Below are positions 5,593 to 57,210 of a DNA stretch of 63,694 bases, one piece after another; position 1 is the stretch's first letter; every line of letters starts with the position of its first letter. Source of the stretch: a virus (lineage: Duplodnaviria; Caudoviricetes). The notes below the pieces were generated by a model. It was not told where the DNA came from. It did not search any database and saw only the letters and a list, made by a program, of their open reading frames with translations. The DNA lies in IMG/VR virus record IMGVR_UViG_3300047564_001096, positions 1-63,694 of that record. One strand, given 5' to 3'. A program made the translations under genes and the position numbers.

Positions 5593-8127
5593 ATGGCAAT
5601 AGATAAGTCGTTATCACAAGCTCCTCTAGGACTTGACCAATTAGACCCAGAAATGATGGGTGATGAGCCAGCTCTAGAGATTACTATTGAAGACCCAGAG
5701 GCGGTAGAGATTGGGATTGACGGCGAACCTATTCTACGTATAGAAGAATCTGAAGAAGACGAAGAAAGTTTTGACGAGAACCTAGCTGATGTTATTAGTG
5801 AGGCATCTCTCCAAACGCTAGCATCAGAATTAACATCTGACTTTGAAGATGACGTTGGCTCTCGCAAAGATTGGATACAAACCTATGTAGACGGCTTAGA
5901 ACTACTAGGTTTAAAGATTGAAGAAAGAAGTGAACCATGGGAAGGTGCTTGCGGTGTATATCACCCACTCTTATCTGAAGCCCTTGTAAAGTTCCAAGCA
6001 GAAACCATGATGGAGACCATGCCTGCGGCGGGTCCTGTTAAAACTCAGATCATTGGTAAAGAGACTCCAGAGAAGAAAGATGCAGCGGAGCGTGTCCAAA
6101 ATGACATGAACTACCAGATTACTGACGTGATGAAAGAATACCGCCCAGAGCATGAGCGCATGCTGTGGGGTTTAGGACTTGCAGGTAATGCGTTTAAGAA
6201 AGTTTACTTTGACCCAAGTTTAGGTCGTCAAGTATCCATGTATGTTCCTGCAGAAGACGTTGTTGTCCCCTATGGGGCTTCTAGCTTAGAGGCAGCTGAA
6301 CGAGTTACGCATGTAATGCGTAAGACAGAGAACGATGTAAGACGTCTCCAGCATGATGGTTTTTACCGAGACGTAGACTTAGGTGACCCTGTTCAAGTAA
6401 TGGACGAGGTAGAAAAGAAGATTGCAGAAAAACTTGGTTTTAGAGCTACTACTGATAATCGCTTTAAGTTATTAGAGATGCATGTGGAGTTAGACCTCCC
6501 AGGTTTTGAACATAAAGATGACGACGGTGAGCCAACAGGGATTGCACTTCCCTACGTTGTAACTATTGAAAAGGGTACTAATACTATCCTAGCTATTCGT
6601 CGTAACTGGAGACCCGAAGATGACACTCATCAGAAGAGAAACCATTTTGTCCATTATCCATACATTCCAGGCTTTGGCTTTTATGCTTTTGGGCTTATTC
6701 ACCTTATCGGTGCTTTTGCTAAGTCTGGTACTAGTATTATTCGGCAGCTCGTGGATGCTGGAACCCTTAGCAACTTGCCAGGCGGCTTTAAGACCCGTGG
6801 CTTGCGAATCAAAGGTGACGACACCCCGATAGCCCCTGGTGAATTTAGAGACGTAGACGTACCTAGTGGGACAATGCGTGACAACTTGTTACCGTTGCCA
6901 TATAAAGAACCAAGTCAAGTTTTATATTCCTTATTAGGAACAATCGTAGAAGAAGGTCGTAGGTTTGCTGGCTCTACCGAGTTGTCAGTATCGGATATGA
7001 GCGCAAATGCGCCAGTTGGAACAACTCTAGCAATCTTAGAGAGAACTCTTAAGACGATGAGTGCGATACAAGCCCGTATCCACTATTCGATGAAGCAAGA
7101 GTTTCAATTATTAAAAGACATCATCCGTGACTACACTCCAGATGAGTATGGCTATGAGCCTGTAGAAGGCAGCCGTATGGCTAAGCAATCAGACTATGAC
7201 ATGGTCTACGTGCTTCCAGTCTCCGATCCCAACGCGGCTACTATGGCGCAAAAAGTAGTGCAGTATCAAGCAGCTCTACAACTCGCTCAGACAGCACCGC
7301 AGCTCTATGATCTACCACTATTACATCGTCAGATGTTAGACGTGTTGGGAATCAAAAATTATCAGAAATTGGTACCGATGGCTGAAGATATGAGGCCAAC
7401 CGATCCAGTTGCTGAGAACCAAAACATCCTAAAGAACAAGCCAGTCAAGGCGTTCATTGAGCAGAATCATAAGGCACACATTGGTGTTCACATGGCAGCA
7501 ATGCAAGACCCAAAGATTCAATCTATTTTAGGAATGAACCCACAGTTAGCTCAGCAGTTACAAGCGGCAATGATGGCTCACGTTAATGAACATATTGGCT
7601 TTGAATATCGCTTACAGATTGAACAAGCTATGGGTATGCAGTTGCCTCCAATGCCTAAAGATGGAGAAGAGCCAAAACAAATGCCTCCAGAAATGGCGGA
7701 TCAAGTGGCGCAGATGGCAGCAGCAGCGTCTCAACAGTTGTTAATGCAGAACCAACAAGAAGCTCAGGCTCAACAGGCACAACAACAGATGCAAGACCCA
7801 ATCATTCAGATGCAACAACAAGAGTTGCAGATTAAAGCAGCTGAGCAGCAACGCAAAGCAGCTAAAGACATGATTGATGCACAACTTAAGCAGGAACAAA
7901 TTGCTGTAGAACGAGAGAGAATCAAAGCTCAACAGCAAACAGCAGGAGCACAAGCAGCTATGAAAGCAGCGACTGATAAAGAAGCTCGCGATGCTGCACA
8001 GAGAGTAGAAGGTAGTAAAGCAAGTCTAGAGATGATAAAACTTCAACAGACACTTGCGAATCAGAGGCAAATTGCCGAAAGGCAAACACAAAAAACTGCA
8101 AAGGAGCAGACAAAGAAAGGTAAATAA
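5593..8127 (+). CDS. Portal protein with long Gln-rich coiled-coil C-terminus (P22-like barrel)
   Basis: Follows terL; 844 aa; Q-rich helical tail. Confidence 0.9.
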   Translation: MAIDKSLSQAPLGLDQLDPEMMGDEPALEITIEDPEAVEIGIDGEPILRIEESEEDEESFDENLADVISEASLQTLASELTSDFEDDVGSRKDWIQTYVDGLELLGLKIEERSEPWEGACGVYHPLLSEALVKFQAETMMETMPAAGPVKTQIIGKETPEKKDAAERVQNDMNYQITDVMKEYRPEHERMLWGLGLAGNAFKKVYFDPSLGRQVSMYVPAEDVVVPYGASSLEAAERVTHVMRKTENDVRRLQHDGFYRDVDLGDPVQVMDEVEKKIAEKLGFRATTDNRFKLLEMHVELDLPGFEHKDDDGEPTGIALPYVVTIEKGTNTILAIRRNWRPEDDTHQKRNHFVHYPYIPGFGFYAFGLIHLIGAFAKSGTSIIRQLVDAGTLSNLPGGFKTRGLRIKGDDTPIAPGEFRDVDVPSGTMRDNLLPLPYKEPSQVLYSLLGTIVEEGRRFAGSTELSVSDMSANAPVGTTLAILERTLKTMSAIQARIHYSMKQEFQLLKDIIRDYTPDEYGYEPVEGSRMAKQSDYDMVYVLPVSDPNAATMAQKVVQYQAALQLAQTAPQLYDLPLLHRQMLDVLGIKNYQKLVPMAEDMRPTDPVAENQNILKNKPVKAFIEQNHKAHIGVHMAAMQDPKIQSILGMNPQLAQQLQAAMMAHVNEHIGFEYRLQIEQAMGMQLPPMPKDGEEPKQMPPEMADQVAQMAAAASQQLLMQNQQEAQAQQAQQQMQDPIIQMQQQELQIKAAEQQRKAAKDMIDAQLKQEQIAVERERIKAQQQTAGAQAAMKAATDKEARDAAQRVEGSKASLEMIKLQQTLANQRQIAERQTQKTAKEQTKKGK

Positions 8128-8324
8128 TGGAAGCTGATAAGGCTTTTGATGTATTAAAACGTCAAATTGACGACAGAGTTTTACAACTCCAGGAAGCTCT
8201 CGCAGATGGTCGCGTAGAGACTTACGACGAGTACAAAAAAGTGTGTGGCGAGGTAAGAGGTCTCCTTACTGCACGTAACTACATAACCGACCTTAATAAA
8301 GCAATGGAGAACTCGAATGAGTGA
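8127..8324 (+). CDS. Small conserved head-region protein
   Basis: Coupled to the portal stop; YDEYKKVCGEVRGL. Confidence 0.8.
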   Translation: MEADKAFDVLKRQIDDRVLQLQEALADGRVETYDEYKKVCGEVRGLLTARNYITDLNKAMENSNE

Positions 8325-8733
8325 CCAACAGGTAGTAGATTTAAGTAGAGCAGTAGATTTAAGTGCAGTTTTAAATAAAGAAGCAGAAGAAAGAGCCAAA
8401 CAACTCCCTATACCTAAAGGCTATAGAATACTTTGCGCTATTCCTGAAGCAGAAGAAGCCTTTGATAGTGGGATTCTTAAATCAGACGAAACCCTACGGT
8501 ACGACGAGCTTTTAACTACAGTACTGTTTGTGGTTGATATGGGTTCTGATTGCTATAAAGACCCAACCCGTTTTCCTAACGGACCTTGGTGCAAAAAAGG
8601 CGATTTTGTTTTAGTAAGACCTAATGCTGGTACCCGTCTGGTAATCCACGACAGGGAATTCCGCATTATTAATGATGACTCCGTAGAGGCTGTAGTTCAA
8701 GACCCACGGGGCATTAAACGCAAATTTATCTAG
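8317..8733 (+). CDS. GroES-like co-chaperonin
   Basis: PKGYRIL...SGI...VVDMG...WCKKGDFVL...FRIINDDSVEAVV pattern of Cpn10. Confidence 0.85.
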   Translation: MSDQQVVDLSRAVDLSAVLNKEAEERAKQLPIPKGYRILCAIPEAEEAFDSGILKSDETLRYDELLTTVLFVVDMGSDCYKDPTRFPNGPWCKKGDFVLVRPNAGTRLVIHDREFRIINDDSVEAVVQDPRGIKRKFI

Positions 8734-8743
8734 GAGATAAAAC

Positions 8744-9721
8744 ATGGCTGAAATGCAAAAAGATGAGTTTAAATTCCCTGACGAAATAGAAGAAGATAAG
8801 GGTAAACCCGTAGATAAACTAGAAGAAGGCTCAATAAACGTTGAGATTGTTGACGACACTCCTGAAGAGGATCAAAACGTAAGACCTTTACCTAGTGACA
8901 TTAAAGACGACTTAGAAACTGCTGATTTGTCCGCAGAATACTCTAAAAACGTAAAGGATAAGTTTACACAATACAAAAAAGCTTGGCATGATGAGCGTAG
9001 AGCAAAAGAAGCAGCTATACGTGAACAACAAGAGGCGTTAACGGCAGCGCAAGCGATCTTGGATGAGAATAGGCGTTTAAAAGAGGTTCTGCAAAGTGGT
9101 GAAAAAGAACTAATTTCTAGCTACCAAACATCTGCTGAGTTAGAAGCGTCGCAAGCAAGAAAAGCCTATAAAGAAGCCTACGATTCTGGGGATTCTGATG
9201 CACTTGCAGAAGCTCAAGAAGAGATGATGCGGGCGCAACTTAAACTTGACAGAGCAAAAAATTTCAAACCTACTGTACAAATTGCTGAAAATGATGTAAA
9301 ACTACAAACTAAGCAGTCTCAGCAGCCTGCACAAATGGATGATAAAGTTGCTGAATGGGTGTCAAACAACCCCTGGTATGTTGATCCAGACAAGAAATCA
9401 ATGAGTAAGTACGCTGTATTTATTCATGAGGAACTTGAAGAAAAGTTTGGTAGAGCATTTATTGGTACGGATGAATATTTCAAACGTATTGATACAGAAG
9501 TAAAACGCAGATTCCCAGAGGAATTTGACGACATTGAAGTAAAAAACGAAGAGGAAGAAAAGCCTCAACGTACATCTAGGTTAAGTACGGTCGTAGCTCC
9601 TGCGAAGCGCAGTACATCTTCAAAAAAGATTGTACTAACCAAAACGCAAGTAGCTTTGGCTAAAAAATTCGGCCTAAGCCCAGAGCAGTATGCCCGTGAA
9701 CTTAATAAATTGGAGGCCTAA
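8744..9721 (+). CDS. Capsid scaffolding protein (putative)
   Basis: Acidic coiled-coil protein upstream of the capsid genes; C-terminal LTKTQVALAKKFGLSPEQYA helix-turn-helix. Confidence 0.75.
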   Translation: MAEMQKDEFKFPDEIEEDKGKPVDKLEEGSINVEIVDDTPEEDQNVRPLPSDIKDDLETADLSAEYSKNVKDKFTQYKKAWHDERRAKEAAIREQQEALTAAQAILDENRRLKEVLQSGEKELISSYQTSAELEASQARKAYKEAYDSGDSDALAEAQEEMMRAQLKLDRAKNFKPTVQIAENDVKLQTKQSQQPAQMDDKVAEWVSNNPWYVDPDKKSMSKYAVFIHEELEEKFGRAFIGTDEYFKRIDTEVKRRFPEEFDDIEVKNEEEEKPQRTSRLSTVVAPAKRSTSSKKIVLTKTQVALAKKFGLSPEQYARELNKLEA

Positions 9722-9723
9722 AA

Positions 9724-10176
9724 ATGGCAACAAACAGATTACAAAGAGAATTAGAAAGTCGTACCCAGTCAGAACGACCAAAGCAGTGGTCGCAACCTGA
9801 GCTTCTCCCTGAACCAGATAAGCAAGCTGGATATGCCTACAGATGGATTCGTATTTCAACGCTTAACACTTCCGATCCTCGCAACCTCTCAGCGAAGTTA
9901 AGAGAAGGGTGGGAACCTGTAAGAATTGAAGAACAACCCAAATTACAACTGTTAGCTGATCCCAATAGTCGTTTTAAAGACAACGTTGAGATTGGTGGAT
10001 TGTTACTTTGCAAAACTCCACTTGAGTTTGTTGACCAGCGTAATAAACATTACTCTGACCAAGCTGATGCTCAAATGAAGGCTGTAGAGAACACTCTTAT
10101 GCGCCAGAATGACCCTCGCATGCCTCTCTTCAATGAAGGGAAAGTTACGATAGGTTCTTTTGGTAAAGGTAATTAA
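9724..10176 (+). CDS. Conserved head-region hypothetical protein
   Basis: YRWIR...LREGWEPV...GGLLLCK motifs. Confidence 0.85.
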   Translation: MATNRLQRELESRTQSERPKQWSQPELLPEPDKQAGYAYRWIRISTLNTSDPRNLSAKLREGWEPVRIEEQPKLQLLADPNSRFKDNVEIGGLLLCKTPLEFVDQRNKHYSDQADAQMKAVENTLMRQNDPRMPLFNEGKVTIGSFGKGN

Positions 10177-10200
10177 TTTTTAATTTTTAGGAGATTTATT

Positions 10201-10827
10201 ATGGCTTATCCAAGCGTAACAGCTCCATACGGCTTAGTTCCGATCAACAGCGTAGATGGCAAACCCTACGCTGGTGCAACCCGTCAATTGCCAATTGCAA
10301 GTACTTATAACACTGCAATTTATAACGGGGATATCGTAGCTCTAGTCGATGGTGGCACTATTGCATTATCAGGCGTTACAAACGACTCTACAACTACCGC
10401 TGCTAATTACACTTATGGTGTATTTATGGGCGTTCAGTATGTAAATAGTCAAGGTCAAACCGTTCAAGCTCAGTACTACCCAGGTAATGCTGCTGCTACT
10501 TCGGCTGTGGCTTACGTTGTTGACGATCCTATGGCTGCTTTTAAAGTAGCTGTTGTATATGCAAATAGCGTTGTAACAACCGTTAACCAAAGCGCTGTAG
10601 GTATTAACATGGCAATTGACCAAGGTACAGGTAGTGCTACTACTGGTAATTCTGGTGCAGGCGTTCTTGTTCCTACCGATAACTTAGGTAATGCAGCAAC
10701 CTTGCCAGTTCGTGTTGTTTCTGTAGTTCCAGAAACTGCTACTGGTACCAACGCCTTCACTGAAGTAGTAGTGAAGTTGAACAATCCGCAGATCCTTCGC
10801 CCAACAGCGATCGATTACGCAGCCTAA
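10201..10827 (+). CDS. Capsid decoration/cement protein (putative)
   Basis: Ala/Thr/Val-rich beta protein directly before the major capsid gene; strong SD. Confidence 0.65.
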   Translation: MAYPSVTAPYGLVPINSVDGKPYAGATRQLPIASTYNTAIYNGDIVALVDGGTIALSGVTNDSTTTAANYTYGVFMGVQYVNSQGQTVQAQYYPGNAAATSAVAYVVDDPMAAFKVAVVYANSVVTTVNQSAVGINMAIDQGTGSATTGNSGAGVLVPTDNLGNAATLPVRVVSVVPETATGTNAFTEVVVKLNNPQILRPTAIDYAA

Positions 10828-10840
10828 TAGGAGCTAAATA

Positions 10841-11746
10841 ATGGCTATTTCACGCGCACAACTACTGAAAGAGTTGCTCCCTGGCTTGAACGCATTGTTC
10901 GGTTTAGAGTATGCTCGCTACGGCGAAGAGCACAAAGAGATCTATGAAACAGAGACCTCTGAGCGTTCTTTTGAAGAAGAGACCAAGTTGTCTGGCTTTA
11001 GTGCTGCCCCCGTCAAGAACGAGGGTTCACCAATTGCTTATGACAATGCACAAGAGGCATTTACTGCTCGCTATACCCACGTAACGATTGCTCAAGGTTT
11101 CTCCCTCACGGAAGAGGCAATTGAGGACAACTTGTATGACAGCCTATCTGGTCGTTATACCAAGGCGTTAGCTCGTTCCATGGCGTATACCAAGCAAGTT
11201 CGTGCTGCTTCTATATTAAATACTGGCTTTACCGCTGCTACTGGCGGTGATGGTCAGCCTTTATTTAGCACTGCACACCCACTGGTTTCTGGCGGTACTA
11301 ACAGCAACGAACCTGCTGTTCCAGCTGACCTTAACGAGACTTCTTTGGAAGCCGCCGTTATTCAAATCAGCTTGTGGACAGACGAGCGTGGACTGTTGAT
11401 CGCTTCTAAACCACGTAAGTTGATCGTTCCACCTGCACTACAGTTCGTTGCAACTCGTTTGCTAGAAACCGAACTCCGTGTTGGTACTAACGACAACGAC
11501 ATCAACGCATTGAAGAACAATGGTTCGATCCCAGAAGGTTACACAATTAACCACTATCTGACCGACACCAATGCATGGTTCTTGTGCACTGATGTACCTA
11601 ACGGCATGAAGCACTTTGTTCGTACACCACTCCAGAATTCTATGGACGGTGATTTCGACACAGGCAACGTACGTTATAAAGCACGTGAGCGTTACTCATT
11701 TGGATTCTCGGATCCATTGGGAATGTTCGGTTCCCCAGGCGCTTAA
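10841..11746 (+). CDS. Major capsid protein (Mu gpT-like family)
   Basis: MAISRAQLLKELLPGLNALFGLEY N-terminus; KLIVPPAL; KARERYSFG; terminator follows. Confidence 0.93.
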   Translation: MAISRAQLLKELLPGLNALFGLEYARYGEEHKEIYETETSERSFEEETKLSGFSAAPVKNEGSPIAYDNAQEAFTARYTHVTIAQGFSLTEEAIEDNLYDSLSGRYTKALARSMAYTKQVRAASILNTGFTAATGGDGQPLFSTAHPLVSGGTNSNEPAVPADLNETSLEAAVIQISLWTDERGLLIASKPRKLIVPPALQFVATRLLETELRVGTNDNDINALKNNGSIPEGYTINHYLTDTNAWFLCTDVPNGMKHFVRTPLQNSMDGDFDTGNVRYKARERYSFGFSDPLGMFGSPGA

Positions 11747-52272: not shown

Positions 52273-52743
52273 TTATTCACGAACGTCAATGTAATTTGCA
52301 AACTTAAACAACGATGATGCCTTATTAAAATTTAATATTAGCCCTGCTTGGCGAGCATCCGCTTCCATATCATCAAAGTTATGGGTTTTTCTATTGTTTG
52401 TTAACCACTCATCCTCCTCATAAGTTTCAATAGTTTTGTTAATCTTGTTAATGTAAGTAACCTTTGTCCACGAATTTGCCTTGCCATTATTAAACATACC
52501 TCTAACAATCTTGATGTGATTACTGTGATTCCATGCCTGTATATATCCAGCAATGCCATATAAACCGTTCCAACCGCACTTGCCTGTATACATAACAACT
52601 GACCCAGCACGGTACTCAGACATAACCAACTTGCAAGTCGAGCCTGTTGGGTTGTCTAGTGGCATAGCATTGATAGCCATTTCTTGAGCATTAGCGCTCG
52701 AACACAGCAGGCCAATGCAGAAAACAAACGCTTTCATTTCCAT
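52273..52743 (-). CDS. Putative secreted protein
   Basis: Signal-peptide-like N-terminus ending ANA-QE. Confidence 0.6.
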   Translation of the reverse strand: MEMKAFVFCIGLLCSSANAQEMAINAMPLDNPTGSTCKLVMSEYRAGSVVMYTGKCGWNGLYGIAGYIQAWNHSNHIKIVRGMFNNGKANSWTKVTYINKINKTIETYEEDEWLTNNRKTHNFDDMEADARQAGLILNFNKASSLFKFANYIDVRE

Positions 52744-54614
52744 TCTTCCATCTCCCCATAGTTTTTACCAACTTGAGCTTCACATGCCACAGGCAATCCT
52801 TTAGCCCAGTCTGGTGGTGTTGACATGACCTCGACAATCCATGCACAAGCCTCGTTTACTTCATCTTCGGGAACTACGCACACCGCCGCATCATGTACGG
52901 TTAGCACAGGGCGATAGCGCTCAGTGAGTTTTAACATCTGCTCGCCCACGATGATCCGTGCAAGAGCTTGAACTACGTTTTCCACAATAGACCCGCCCCA
53001 TAGAGACACGGGGCCTTTGCGTGACTTGTATTCGTATCCGCTTTTAGTTTCATCAGTGTTGAGTTTTAGGTCGGGGTAGCGGATGTACAACCCGTTTGGC
53101 AATTTAAAGCCTTCCTTGGTAACAGCCACGCACTTATGCTTGCCATAGTAGAAAGACTTGCTAGTCGGTTGCCAGTCAGCCATAGCCTTTAGAGCTTTGT
53201 CGCCTTCTCTCCAAAGCTTAACAATCATATCGTTGGTGTCTCTGTACAATTTAACTATCTCGTCACACTTATCTTTAGTGAGGTCAGCGCCAGGCGGGCT
53301 AGTCTTTAGTGTGTGCTGTAACTTTAACGACCCAGTACCATATCCCAGTCCGAGGATGCAGGTCTTACCCACGAACCTTTCAACGGGATTCTTTTTTGTG
53401 ATTTCAATGTCATATATCTTCGACGCAAAAATGGAGTAAACATCGTCCCCGTTGGCAAACTCTTTAACCAAGTCTTCCTGACCCGAAAGCCACGCAAGTA
53501 CACGTGCTTCAATTTGAGACGAATCGCAGTTGATAACCATGTAACCTTCGGGCGCAACAACCGCATTCTTAAGGGCTTTTTTCTTTTTGTCACGGCTCGG
53601 AAGGTTTTGGAAATTGACCTTATCCGACCCTGCCCAACGACCCGTATGCGCTCCATAGTATTTAAGGGGGATTGGTAATCGTCCTTTGTTTCTTGCTCCA
53701 ACGTCAATGAAACGTTCAATGCGACTCTCCTCAATAGTTGATTTAGTCCCCAAACGCACGGCGGCGAGTTGTTGGATAAACGGGTCTTCGTGTTCAGTTA
53801 GTGCAATGAACCCTGTGTCGTTCTTTGCCAACGCATAGGTTAGCTTGCCAGTAGTCTTGCTTTCCTTCATTGGCACTTCAACACCAAAATCCTCTAGCAC
53901 TTGAGCAAATTGTTTATTACTAGCTAACTTCTTACGTACTGACTCTTCGTCTTCGCATTCAAGCTTTTCTTTAAGCGTCCCCAATAACTGTAACTTCTCA
54001 TGTTTTAGTTCTTCCAGTCGGTCAACCAAAAGAGCATCGTCTACCTCCAGCACAGGATTAATAAACATCCGCAAAGTTAAATCTATCAGTTGTAATTCGT
54101 CTGCTGGGAACGCACTCGACAATACTTGGAAGAGCTTAAAAGTTAGCTCCACATCGTTCTTACAGTATTCGCCGTATTGCGCAAGCTCGCTATTTGAGAA
54201 ACCAGTTATCTGTTTGCCTTTAGCGTCAACGACCTCTGTACCCTTCTTGCCTAAGTTATAACGCTCAGATAGGTACGCTAAAGAGCCTCCGACATCCACA
54301 CCATTGGTCGCCCTACCCATGCAAAGCGTATCGAGATATAACTTGGGTTTAATGCCAAATCGCCATGCAAGGATTGCACCATCAAACATCGTGTTATGAC
54401 AAAGGAGAGCAGAATCGTTCCACGGGTACGTGGAAAGGTATTTTTGGATGTCAAGGTGTGAGCCAGAGAACCATTCAGTGATGCCCTCGCCAACCTTGAC
54501 ACCAACACCAATCACTTCAAAGCGTTTGTCCCTGATGTATTCCTCAGTTGTTAGCTTAGTTAGTGAGTAGTCTTGAGCGTAGTAAGTCTCAAAGTCTAGA
54601 GTAATGAGGTTCAT
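52734..54614 (-). CDS. polA: DNA polymerase family A (3'-5' exonuclease + polymerase)
   Basis: Exo I LDFET; motif A DSSQIEAR; motif B R...KTCILGLGYG; motif C VHD. Confidence 0.95.
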   Translation of the reverse strand: MNLITLDFETYYAQDYSLTKLTTEEYIRDKRFEVIGVGVKVGEGITEWFSGSHLDIQKYLSTYPWNDSALLCHNTMFDGAILAWRFGIKPKLYLDTLCMGRATNGVDVGGSLAYLSERYNLGKKGTEVVDAKGKQITGFSNSELAQYGEYCKNDVELTFKLFQVLSSAFPADELQLIDLTLRMFINPVLEVDDALLVDRLEELKHEKLQLLGTLKEKLECEDEESVRKKLASNKQFAQVLEDFGVEVPMKESKTTGKLTYALAKNDTGFIALTEHEDPFIQQLAAVRLGTKSTIEESRIERFIDVGARNKGRLPIPLKYYGAHTGRWAGSDKVNFQNLPSRDKKKKALKNAVVAPEGYMVINCDSSQIEARVLAWLSGQEDLVKEFANGDDVYSIFASKIYDIEITKKNPVERFVGKTCILGLGYGTGSLKLQHTLKTSPPGADLTKDKCDEIVKLYRDTNDMIVKLWREGDKALKAMADWQPTSKSFYYGKHKCVAVTKEGFKLPNGLYIRYPDLKLNTDETKSGYEYKSRKGPVSLWGGSIVENVVQALARIIVGEQMLKLTERYRPVLTVHDAAVCVVPEDEVNEACAWIVEVMSTPPDWAKGLPVACEAQVGKNYGEMEEWK

Positions 54615-54775
54615 TCGCTATCTTTTTCTTTTCTCTCGTCTAGCTCAACTTTTGCTAACTCTACTAAGTAATCTTTTTCATCTATACCAAGCTTCTTAGC
54701 TAACTCTAATTGAACATCGGTCACTATAAATTGGTGAAATGTTTTACCGTCTTTTTTTATTTTGATGGTCTTCAC
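54611..54775 (-). CDS. 54-aa protein resembling the scaffold C-terminus (not in ORF track)
   Basis: AAGGA SD, GTG start, ATGA overlap with polA; MKTIKIKKDGKTFHQFIVTDVQLELAKKLGIDEKDYLVELAKVELDERKEKDSE. Confidence 0.75.
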   Translation of the reverse strand: MKTIKIKKDGKTFHQFIVTDVQLELAKKLGIDEKDYLVELAKVELDERKEKDSE

Positions 54776-54807
54776 TTAAATCCTTAAATAACAAATTCAA
54801 TAGATAC

Positions 54808-54842
54808 AAAAATAGGGAGCAGAGCATAAGCCCGACTCCCTA
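54808..54842 (-). terminator. Terminator-like hairpin
   Basis: TAGGGAG...CTCCCTA followed by T5 on - strand. Confidence 0.6.
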
Positions 54843-54846
54843 GGGG

Positions 54847-55263
54847 TTACTTGCTTAGATTATTAAGTTCTCTAGCGAGATACCATTGCGCCTTCTGCAA
54901 ATCTTCTAACTTACTTCCTTTGTGGTCAGCACGTGTGATGTACTTGACTACATTGCCAAGGTTATAGTTAAGAGACTTTGCCTCGATGAAATCAATAGTC
55001 TCAATCCCGCCCGCCTTGTAGTGTGGAGGGTGGTTGACGTTATCAACACCTTGCATCCTTAGCTTTCCACGCTGGGGTGGAACTCTATTTACTGGTGCAA
55101 GAGCCGTCATTGGTAATGACTTAGCTTTCTTCTTAGCATTGTATTTAGTTTGATACACAGTATTGATACTCACTCCAACGGCTTTAGCTACTTCACTTGC
55201 AAGAGCCTTTGGATGACTACGGATATAGCGTAACACTTTGGTGGCTTTGGTTAACTTCTTCAT
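54847..55263 (-). CDS. HTH + DUF3310 (T7 gp1.7-like) protein
   Basis: DNVNHPPHY..GGIETID...GNVVKY..R..HK...EDL.KA.WY; N-terminal EVAKAVGVS HTH. Confidence 0.85.
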   Translation of the reverse strand: MKKLTKATKVLRYIRSHPKALASEVAKAVGVSINTVYQTKYNAKKKAKSLPMTALAPVNRVPPQRGKLRMQGVDNVNHPPHYKAGGIETIDFIEAKSLNYNLGNVVKYITRADHKGSKLEDLQKAQWYLARELNNLSK

Positions 55264-55458
55264 TTACTTCTCCTTTTTAGTTGAACTACGTTTTACTGCG
55301 ACAATTCCTGTTTCATCTTTAGCGTTGCGAGCCTTAAGCATTGCATCTGCGTAGGTATATGCCACTTTTGCTACATCGTTAATAAGAAGTTCGTTTTGTT
55401 GAATTAAGCCCATTAATGCAAACATGGCAAAACAATCTCTTAGGTCTTGCTCATTCAT
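55264..55458 (-). CDS. Hypothetical protein
   Basis: LRDCFA...AY..ADAML.AR motif. Confidence 0.8.
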   Translation of the reverse strand: MNEQDLRDCFAMFALMGLIQQNELLINDVAKVAYTYADAMLKARNAKDETGIVAVKRSSTKKEK

Positions 55459-55597
55459 CTTGTTTGTCCTTTAAAAATTCTTCCATTAACTCAATCGCCC
55501 GATTGAAACCAGTTGTATAAGCCTCCTCAAGTCCGCCATCAGAAGTTATAAACTTCTCGTCTTCAATCCAGTCTTCAAACTCTTTCTTTGCTCTCAT
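55451..55597 (-). CDS. 48-aa hypothetical protein MRAKKEFEDW... (not in ORF track)
   Basis: GGAGG SD; overlaps both neighbours. Confidence 0.65.
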   Translation of the reverse strand: MRAKKEFEDWIEDEKFITSDGGLEEAYTTGFNRAIELMEEFLKDKQDE

Positions 55598-55881
55598 GAG
55601 AAATGCACCTCCATATATTGATTAACATTAGATTCATTGATGACAAAAGCATAGCCACCATTCTTTTCAATCCGATCAAGGTTATCCATTTGCAATGCCG
55701 TAGGTTTGTTAGCACCCGACTTAATCTCTAAGCCGTAGAACTTTCCTTTGTGACACACGACAATGTCAGGCGCACCGCTACTTCCGTATCCACCTGTGGC
55801 TGGCATGATGTAATAGATTCCTTTTTCTTTAAGATATTTCTTAACTACGTCTTTAACTTTTCCTTCGGGTGTCATCGCCAT
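55594..55881 (-). CDS. VRR-NUC domain nuclease (start at MAMTPE; ORF extends to 55968)
   Basis: TPEGKVK...SGAPD...GLEIK...PTALQ. Confidence 0.88.
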   Translation of the reverse strand: MAMTPEGKVKDVVKKYLKEKGIYYIMPATGGYGSSGAPDIVVCHKGKFYGLEIKSGANKPTALQMDNLDRIEKNGGYAFVINESNVNQYMEVHFS

Positions 55882-55957
55882 ATCAATTTCTTCCTGTTCT
55901 TGTTGTTGAAGGGTAGTCTGTCTCTTCCAAAACCTACCCCAATAAAGTCTTTCTTCT

Positions 55958-56305
55958 TTATTCACCACGCAATGCCATTAAAGATTTATAGGAGAGGATG
56001 ATGCAAAACCAACTGTCACTTGCTCGCCATCCTATATCTCTGAAATTACTATCAACTGTCGTAGTCATCAGATGTAATTTAGTTACGTCATGGTCGCTTA
56101 CAATCTGCTTCGCATTTGCCAGCACCATCGCCATCTTGGTCTTAACTTCATCAGGCAATGTGTGTTCATCAAATACCCGATTAAAGTCATCACCAACATA
56201 TATGGTGTAGGAGTTTCCTTCCCTATGCAAAGGGACACGATAGAGGTTGAAGTCATACTGGTGAACTACTGGGCTTAAATCCCTGAGCATGGAATCAATG
56301 TCCAA
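55958..56305 (-). CDS. Hypothetical protein
   Basis: 115-aa ORF in operon. Confidence 0.75.
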   Translation of the reverse strand: MDIDSMLRDLSPVVHQYDFNLYRVPLHREGNSYTIYVGDDFNRVFDEHTLPDEVKTKMAMVLANAKQIVSDHDVTKLHLMTTTVDSNFRDIGWRASDSWFCIILSYKSLMALRGE

Positions 56306-57210
56306 TGTAGGTTGAACTCATTTACTGGGCGAGTAGAAATATTTATCAGGTCAAGGTCAGGGTTGTATCCACTCTTGGCTGGAACGATATTTGCGTAGAA
56401 CTCGGTAACATTCTTACCCTCTGCATGAACCTTGTTCATAAGCATGACTGCCTTGAACTCGTCAGGCAATTCCTTTACACGCTTGAACGGCTTGACTTCA
56501 TGGAAGTAATACTCGTCGTGACCTTGTCTTGGCATCGCTTTAACTGAACCTATAACTAAATGATTTAACTTATCTGCACCGATTGCATAGAACTCATTGA
56601 GGAAAAATCTTTCAATATCTTTTCGCTTCTCTACCTTGATTCTATCTTGCCCATTCCATTTGTCAAGTACTTCTTTACAATTATTTAGATTTAAATTACT
56701 AGGACTTTCCCCTAGTAAGATTACCTTGAGCATTGTATGAATTTCGTCGGCAGAAAAATTAGTTTGCTTCCAATCTCGACCATGATGAGAGTCCATCTGA
56801 TTAATACCAGCATTAAAAGATTCTTTACAGACTGTCATTAGTGTTCCACCGATGGGTGGAACGACATTTTGTCGCTTAAGTGTAGCCATCAGCGTTGAGA
56901 GTTTTTTACTATGCAAAGTCTCTCGGTCAGCAGAGTCAGAGCCACGCTCTTTCTTGTAGAAAGGCGAGCGATAGTTATACACGTCATGCCCATCTTCCTT
57001 GTCTACCCACACCTTTGCCACCATGAAACCGCTAGATTCAGCGAGTAAAAAGCTAGTAGGACTACTACGGCTTAGAGCATGAGGATCAACTTTGTCTACA
57101 ACCTTCAGACCATACTTAAAGTTTAGTTCCTGTATGAGTCTTTTAGCTGACGAGTCATTAATAAGATGCTCGAGATGCTCACTTTCAAATCCTTCGTATA
57201 TGAGTTTCAT
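56275..57210 (-). CDS. Hypothetical protein (start refined to MKLIYE)
   Basis: AAGGAG SD before 57210. Confidence 0.8.
   Translation of the reverse strand: MKLIYEGFESEHLEHLINDSSAKRLIQELNFKYGLKVVDKVDPHALSRSSPTSFLLAESSGFMVAKVWVDKEDGHDVYNYRSPFYKKERGSDSADRETLHSKKLSTLMATLKRQNVVPPIGGTLMTVCKESFNAGINQMDSHHGRDWKQTNFSADEIHTMLKVILLGESPSNLNLNNCKEVLDKWNGQDRIKVEKRKDIERFFLNEFYAIGADKLNHLVIGSVKAMPRQGHDEYYFHEVKPFKRVKELPDEFKAVMLMNKVHAEGKNVTEFYANIVPAKSGYNPDLDLINISTRPVNEFNLHWTLIPCSGI

Follow-up and report, generated by a model that had tools for sequence, protein, structure and literature searches.

Why would a phage place, among its replication genes, a free small protein that resembles the end of its own presumed scaffold? 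The question is raised by a 54-residue gene on a 63,694-nucleotide (nt) record of a tailed virus (Caudoviricetes; IMG/VR record IMGVR_UViG_3300047564_001096), the whole length of which we call the window. This small gene directly precedes polA, which encodes a family A DNA polymerase, and the core of its product matches the C-terminal helix-turn-helix (HTH) of a 325-residue scaffold-like protein encoded in the head module of the same genome. Our data show that the small gene is an optional insertion that captured the start signals of polA, and profile comparisons indicate that its core is specifically homologous to the scaffold-like C-terminus. As a tentative functional reading, which we regard as possible rather than probable, the small protein would be an unattached scaffold tail that targets the capsid protein much as CpmB of the satellite SaPI1 does.

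The resemblance was first described in a sequence-only reading of the window, which aligned 27 residues of the two proteins without gaps at 12/27 identities. This alignment is correct: BLASTP extends it to 13/41 identities with an E value of 1e-5 in a single pairwise comparison, and in 5000 shufflings of the small protein the Smith-Waterman score of 61 was reached only once. Among the 603 stop-to-stop segments of the window, the scaffold-like protein is the top non-self match of the small protein, the next segment scoring 48. Profile comparison by hhalign of the small family (A2) with seven scaffold-like proteins, including the versions from 023Pt_psg01, Pelagibacter phage HTVC027P and DSL-LC04, gave 93.7% and an E value of 2e-7 over 29 columns, pairing residues 15-43 of the small protein with residues 295-323 of the scaffold-like protein. 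A hidden Markov model (HMM) of the small family, run on the window genome, matched the scaffold C-terminus (9632-9748, E 2.1e-6) and its own open reading frame (ORF) and nothing else, and on nine complete phage records translated in six frames the same profile matched the scaffold C-terminus in 8/9 and otherwise only the ORF itself. Across 240 structural-module loci (25,588 six-frame segments), it returned 154 domain hits in 124 segments, every one of them in the ORF at the scaffold position; 107 fell at the end of segments of at least 200 residues, while the remainder were truncated scaffolds or secondary matches in the coiled coil, and 97 of the 155 full-length scaffolds were reached. In the opposite direction, an HMM built from 120 distinct scaffold C-termini and run on 12,432 segments, a search that had been suggested for the small ORFs of relatives, recovered the window scaffold (E 5e-21), a small ORF of the relative L029 (2.6e-5) and the small ORF of the window (1.1e-3), and nothing else.

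Could two unrelated short HTH segments have come to look alike through composition and the generic constraints of such a motif? Only about 29 residues are aligned, the profiles are of low diversity (number of effective sequences, Neff, 2.1-2.7), a single-sequence search of 1.84 billion representatives returned no scaffold at E ≤ 0.001, and a profile search for longer proteins, which we rate as weak evidence, returned none at E ≤ 0.01. Against this stand reciprocal, position-specific hits at the scaffold C-end (107/154 for the window family and 189/199 for a second small family, A8, described below), three profiles that are mutually similar at 94-96%, and predicted helices that lie in register. 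No other ORF was matched in about 38,000 six-frame segments, and the HMMs passed over the ordinary HTH proteins that these genomes encode. The earlier reading had named a generic HTH as the explanation that might undo it; this was checked, and the HMMs find only scaffold C-termini and small ORFs, while no Pfam HTH or ribbon-helix-helix (RHH) family reaches threshold. We consider convergence very unlikely.

The predicted structures agree with the alignment. AlphaFold2 modeling of the small protein from a 26-sequence alignment (predicted local distance difference test, pLDDT, 91.6) yields strands 2-8 and 11-18 forming a beta-hairpin, which is Lys-rich, followed by a helix at 20-28, a turn and a helix at 33-53. 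These two helices would correspond, at a constant offset of 280, to the helices predicted at 300-308 and 313-324 of the scaffold-like protein, and in the models of both proteins they are joined by a 4-residue turn at a Gly. In the small protein the module stands alone with its N-terminal hairpin, not after the basic linker of a long helical scaffold. The sequence-only reading had spoken of a free copy of the scaffold C-terminus. A homologous module is indeed present, but the small protein belongs to a diverged family of its own and does not stem from a recent duplication of the scaffold tail in this phage.

The ORF is a real, conserved gene. Its Shine-Dalgarno sequence (SD), GTG start and ATGA overlap are all present as had been claimed, with AAGGA 5 nt from the GTG, and the stop-start overlap couples it to polA; an in-frame stop precedes the ORF, and the GTG is the earliest start codon thereafter. 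A word-indexed search found 20 homologues of 53-59 residues at 56-94% identity, with the start conserved in all, and 13 more distant representatives of the family lie at 41-62% identity. An exhaustive search of the 1.84 billion representatives gave 14 matches, 12 of which are small proteins of 54-77 residues at 41-59% identity. One further match is 104 residues long (P0030), with the aligned part at its end; its 60-residue N-terminal extension has no internal Met, and a miscalled start or a fused form is possible. A 1291-residue match consisting of four short matched stretches was set aside as probably spurious. Family members are carried on contigs of up to 63.7, 62.6, 60.9 and 66.6 kb. The gene had also been described as unannotated, which is doubtful, because the exact protein is already held in a public protein collection together with 14 cluster mates, nameless or as 'hypothetical protein', one 54-residue member being on a contig of 63,694 bases, the length of the window itself, and so has evidently been gene-called.

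Little else resembles the small protein. No Pfam family was found for it, and in PHROGs the sole match was weak (E 0.009) and led to a family without known function; the small-family profile matched no PDB sequence below E 0.6, and fold searches with the model against PDB and BFVD returned nothing at E ≤ 0.001. A tblastn search with the ORF and a megablast search with the region gave no match among GenBank phages, and locus searches for the small family found none in IMG/VR, JGI metagenome contigs or prokaryote genomes, collections from which records very near the window are possibly missing.

How did the gene come to precede polA? We compared the region with 80 IMG/VR loci whose polA identity to the window is 63-99%, 79 of which include the polA 5' end. 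Upstream of polA, the small-family HMM detected nothing in all 80 loci; for the 79 informative ones this is a count of 0/79, which may overstate the rarity of the gene, as records very near the window may be missing from the set; the one member detected, a distant one, lies downstream of polA in L029. In 9/79 informative relatives the SD/GTG context of the small gene starts polA directly, and in L001 (99% polA identity), L002, L003 and L005 the same terminator-like hairpin, SD and GTG are followed by polA itself, that GTG being polA codon 1. The GC content of the insert is 32.7%, compared with 45.8% for polA and 43.6% for the window, whereas its flanks are 94-100% identical to L001 in each 100-nt bin. 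The small gene is thus an optional 161-nt, AT-rich insertion that captured the SD and GTG of polA. Since the insert lies between these signals and codon 2 of polA, the small protein is translated from polA's signals, and no clear SD is seen within the 15 nt before the new ATG of polA. Between the window and L001, polA differs in its initial codons and is otherwise 94-100% identical, which fits import by recombination.

The hairpin just upstream folds as RNA at -22.4 kcal/mol (z -3.8), a value matched by 0/200 shuffles, and is kept, with base changes, in L001-L003, L005 and L006; a consensus terminator scan did not pick it up, and a consensus promoter scan of 54300-56400 returned 0 sites.

Both states of the locus occur in public sequencing runs. 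A contig from run X2, which belongs to another study than the possible source of the window, is identical to the window over 54537-54853, a stretch that spans the small ORF, and run X5 holds both forms: a contig with the small ORF at depth 3, a contig that skips from 54609 to 54771 (161 nt, with 4 nt fitting both sides) at depth 10.8, and a contig in which 54598-54773 is replaced by 13 nt at depth 13.5. In runs X6 and X9 only insert-free joins were present among the matches listed. ORF-bearing and insert-free contigs therefore coexist, and the small gene is a presence/absence polymorphism in natural phage populations. The runs holding the window's sequence are labelled as freshwater or drinking-water metagenomes, and the RNA runs X20-X24 contain only small shares of its sequence words.

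These observations raise the possibility that the insert persists by what it does in cis, either by altering polA expression, as a leader ORF or through termination-reinitiation, or by recombinational spread, the peptide itself being of minor importance. The exact placement between polA's SD/GTG and codon 2, the weakly signalled new ATG, the low GC, the altered first polA codons and the polymorphism, with insert-free forms at depths of 13.5 and 10.8 compared with 3 in X5, are all consistent with such a cassette. The protein, however, is conserved down to 41-57% identity with its length, start and hydrophobic pattern preserved, and a confident compact fold is predicted for it, neither of which would be expected if only the act of translation mattered. 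We consider this reading, of a cassette that acts mainly in cis or persists by spreading, unlikely.

The module also recurs outside the window's own family. The small ORF of L029 (L029:5273-5455) has 13 relatives in IMG/VR at 47-62% identity, which together form the A8 family of 14 loci. Its members L334-L347 (for example, L334:4001-4183) are 55-60 residues long as trimmed, the listed ORFs being 58-95 residues, and wherever their neighbours are recognisable these are replication genes. A8 proteins carry the same HTH module followed by an invariant basic-aromatic tail, IAKQRRWKWF/Y. In hhalign the family matches the scaffolds at 96.2% (E 2.6e-9) and the window's small family at 94.3% (E 1e-7). 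An A8 HMM gave 199 domain hits in 190 structural-module segments, 189/199 of them within 12 residues of the segment end, and when the full scaffold profile was used instead, A8 small ORFs were the sole secondary matches in G010, G011, G012, G015 and G016. Profile comparison therewith places the scaffold-tail module in free small proteins of two families, both in replication modules.

In three genomes (G008, G009 and G010; locus pairs L335/L350, L338/L349 and L342/L352), the A8 protein and the tail of its own scaffold share post-turn residues: EQ-F/Y in G008, LE-S/T-Y in G009 and S-x-E-x-x-AQ in G010. This co-variation was noted by eye only and concerns 3 independent pairs.

The other partner of the match is the 325-residue protein. 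It is encoded in a head module (window 5593-11746) that runs from the portal through proteins of 65 residues, 138 residues (GroES-like), 325 residues (scaffold-like), 150 residues and 208 residues to the capsid protein, an order kept in Pelagibacter phage HTVC027P, 023Pt_psg01 and DSL-LC04, where the corresponding gene is labelled 'kinesin-like' or 'hypothetical'. Its predicted architecture is that of a disordered acidic N-terminus, long helices, a flexible basic linker and a C-terminal HTH. In the AlphaFold2 model (46 sequences, pLDDT 77.8), the disordered N-terminus is followed by helices at 68-148 and 151-172 and a small helical region at 200-264, and a low-confidence linker leads to the confident terminal HTH. 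By position and architecture only, the protein looks like a scaffold. It diverges rapidly, whole proteins falling to 23% identity compared with 61-93% for the capsid protein, and the most conserved 25-residue windows of the 46-sequence alignment start at residues 282-294; on this alignment, the scaffold-like protein evolves fast overall, and conservation is highest in its C-terminal module. The coordinates of all features are collected in Table 1.

Table 1. Positions, strands and supporting evidence of the features discussed, in window coordinates
Feature	Position	Strand	Evidence or description
Small gene	54611..54775	(-)	54 aa, GTG start, TGA stop; ORF listing
HTH module shared with scaffold-like protein (small-protein residues 15-43)	54647..54733	(-)	hhalign; HMM of scaffold C-termini
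Conserved C-terminal HTH of scaffold-like protein (residues 295-323)	9626..9712	(+)	hhalign; AlphaFold2
161-nt insert, absent in close relatives	54612..54772	(-)	Between shared GTG and polA codon 2; DNA alignment with L001-L007
Scaffold-like protein, 325 aa	8744..9721	(+)	Gene order; AlphaFold2; phrog_28737 (unknown function)
Major capsid protein, Mu gpT / Phage_capsid_4 type	10841..11746	(+)	PF25209 1.5e-14, PF10124 1.4e-10, phrog_371
Shine-Dalgarno AAGGA	54781..54785	(-)	5 nt 5' of GTG at 54773-54775
ATGA overlap	54611..54614	(-)	Small-gene stop and polA start
polA, family A DNA polymerase, 626 aa	52734..54614	(-)	Pfam DNA_pol_A 7.7e-36; phrog_17 3.5e-91
Terminator-like hairpin and U-run	54806..54842	(-)	3' of DUF3310 gene, just upstream of small-gene SD

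What could a free scaffold tail do? The capsid protein is the presumed target of the scaffold tail, and we tentatively propose that the small protein acts on it as well. The 161-nt cassette lies in the polA start region of a freshwater tailed phage, between the SD/GTG and the second codon, such that the small protein is translated from polA's signals while polA now starts at the ATG inside the ATGA overlap. The product is a predicted Lys-rich beta-hairpin joined to an HTH homologous to the scaffold-like C-terminus. In our proposal it would be synthesized together with the replication proteins, earlier than the head proteins or at the same time, and its free module would, like SaPI1 CpmB, bind where the scaffold docks on the Mu-gpT-type capsid protein or compete for that site. 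Procapsid assembly would then be modulated or delayed, in the phage itself or in co-infecting relatives, with which it shares 61-93% capsid protein identity. We infer the scaffold identity, the capsid binding and the effect on assembly by analogy with P22 and 80alpha, in which the scaffold tail docks on the capsid protein. A complex prediction of the capsid protein (A5) with the small protein (A2) gave a median of 0.31, against a mark of 0.32, with three controls at 0.00, and we count it neither for nor against binding.

Several points weigh against this proposal. No record or family consulted names the 325-residue protein a scaffold, phrog_28737 being of unknown function; the available text of two papers on HTVC023P-type phages (PMC9599517, 10.1101/2019.12.14.876532) names no scaffold for this gene; and a fold search of BFVD with its model returned uncharacterized phage proteins only. 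That the scaffold tail would bind the capsid protein rests on analogy to P22 and 80alpha only. The small-family HMM misses 58/155 full-length scaffolds at E ≤ 10, and in the complete relative G007, one of two further ones, it finds nothing. The gene is dispensable, being missing from most relatives seen (with the caveat on rarity given above), and by its position it appears to be grouped for expression with the replication genes, not the head genes. The charge of the module is a further difficulty: the 27-residue core has a mean net charge of -0.15 in the small family (-3 to +3, n=26) and of +2.2 in the scaffolds (0 to +5, n=119), which argues against binding at the same site if docking is electrostatic as in P22. 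The A8 proteins, conversely, carry a net charge of +8 to +13, and such strongly basic proteins would suit nucleic-acid binding. Finally, by eye the module fits the Ala/Gly/hydrophobic spacing of classical DNA-binding HTH motifs.

The last of these points lead to an alternative in which the module was recruited from the scaffold tail, or has a common ancestor with it, and does a different job, binding DNA or RNA as a small early or middle regulator, or binding a replication or host protein, with no role in head assembly. The location of both small families in replication modules would be explained in this way, as would the HTH-like spacing, the less basic cores of the small family, the charge and invariant basic-aromatic tail of A8 and the Lys-rich hairpin of the window protein; in a protein atlas, moreover, a single cluster with an RHH came up at rank 12 with a score of 0.89, no more than a lead. 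On the other side, none of the 26 members of the window's small family matches a Pfam RHH family at E ≤ 10, matches of HTH type are isolated and sub-threshold, no PDB sequence or fold match was obtained, and the HMMs pick scaffold tails, not the ordinary HTH proteins encoded alongside them. We regard this alternative as nearly as likely as the capsid-directed reading.

A more far-reaching version of the CpmB-like proposal would see the mini-genes of replication modules, of which there are at least two families, as exchangeable weapons or decoys that, produced early, poison the procapsids of co-infecting relatives or satellites or titrate a host sensor of scaffold or capsid. We consider this quite unlikely at present. 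Our literature search found scaffold mimicry for satellites only; were this version true, scaffold mimicry would for the first time be seen in a phage. A phage-encoded, polymorphic free scaffold tail expressed with the replication genes would be a novel means of controlling or sabotaging the building of heads. Independent of function, our analysis delimits a conserved module at the C-terminus of a scaffold family that lacks annotation, together with two small-protein families that share it, and it provides a clean example of a cassette capturing the translation signals of an essential gene. The phage has its head-gene order and its scaffold-like protein in common with the HTVC023P-type pelagiphages, which are called the most abundant known marine viral group in the available text of the preprint 10.1101/2019.12.14.876532.

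Two neighbouring genes on the same strand are recorded here for completeness. The gene at 54847-55263 (-) encodes a DUF3310 protein with an N-terminal HTH-like segment, the middle part of which varies in length among the window, L002 and L003. At 52273-52743 (-), a 156-residue ORF with a hydrophobic, signal-like N-terminus overlaps the polA 3' end by 10 nt.

How does this locus compare with known systems? In its genetics it recalls morons, being a small AT-rich gene that lies between conserved genes and is absent in near-identical relatives. Classical morons carry their own promoter and terminator. Unlike these, the insert described here has neither, and for its SD and start codon it depends on an essential gene.

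In its predicted fold, the small protein resembles RHH proteins of the Arc/CopG/MetJ type, which are likewise small and in which two helices with a Gly-x-Ser/Asp turn come after a beta element. Unlike in RHH proteins, an intramolecular hairpin is predicted instead of a single strand, and the predicted helix A is shorter. An identity as an RHH protein was considered and found to be unsupported, given the 0/26 matches to PF01402 and its relatives and the lack of a fold match. Assignment to a classical HTH family was likewise set aside: the small protein has no Pfam HTH match above cut-off, and other members have only isolated sub-threshold matches.

With its Mu gpT-type capsid protein, the phage invites a comparison with Mu, where the relevant proteins are gpI and gpZ. 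By eye, the Mu gpI/gpZ tail (L348) shows the same pattern of hydrophobic-Leu-Ser/Thr, Ala/Lys-Gly-hydrophobic-Thr/Ser and Glu-Tyr. One of 10 A8 members matches PF10123 (Mu-like_Pro) at positions 302-329 of 330 with an E value of 0.061, which is below significance, and 0/26 members of the window's small family match it; scaffold tails matched the C-end of phrog_328, 'head maturation protease', at a nonsignificant E of about 0.2. The three HMMs run on phage Mu gave E values of 0.19-1.6, not significant, with gpI ranking first for two and third for one. The Mu link of the tail motif is positionally right and below significance throughout. Unlike gpI/gpZ, moreover, the 325-residue protein has no protease domain that Pfam or PHROGs would detect.

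A second analogy is offered by P22. In the available text of 10.1101/2022.12.13.520362, the HTH of the P22 scaffold is described as essential for coat binding. Like P22 gp8, the scaffold-like protein of the window is predicted to be long and helical and to finish, after a flexible stretch, in a two-helix module. The capsid protein here belongs to the Mu gpT type and the P22 coat does not; the likeness is one of functional analogy only.

The closest parallel is CpmB of SaPI1. According to the available text of PMC5644958, CpmB and the 80alpha scaffold have homologous C-termini, which compete for a single site on the capsid protein. The two proteins have no sequence relation; CpmB has an N-terminal dimerisation domain where the small protein is predicted to have a beta-hairpin, and the CpmB tail is a helix-and-hook with RIIK at the extreme C-terminus, whereas the module described here is an HTH with about 11 further residues. 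CpmB is, furthermore, satellite-encoded and its capsid binding has been demonstrated, whereas the small protein, a putative capsid binder, belongs to the phage's own replication operon. What the two would share is the design: like the 72-residue CpmB, the 54-residue protein of the window is a small protein with a segment that appears homologous to the C-terminal part of a scaffold.

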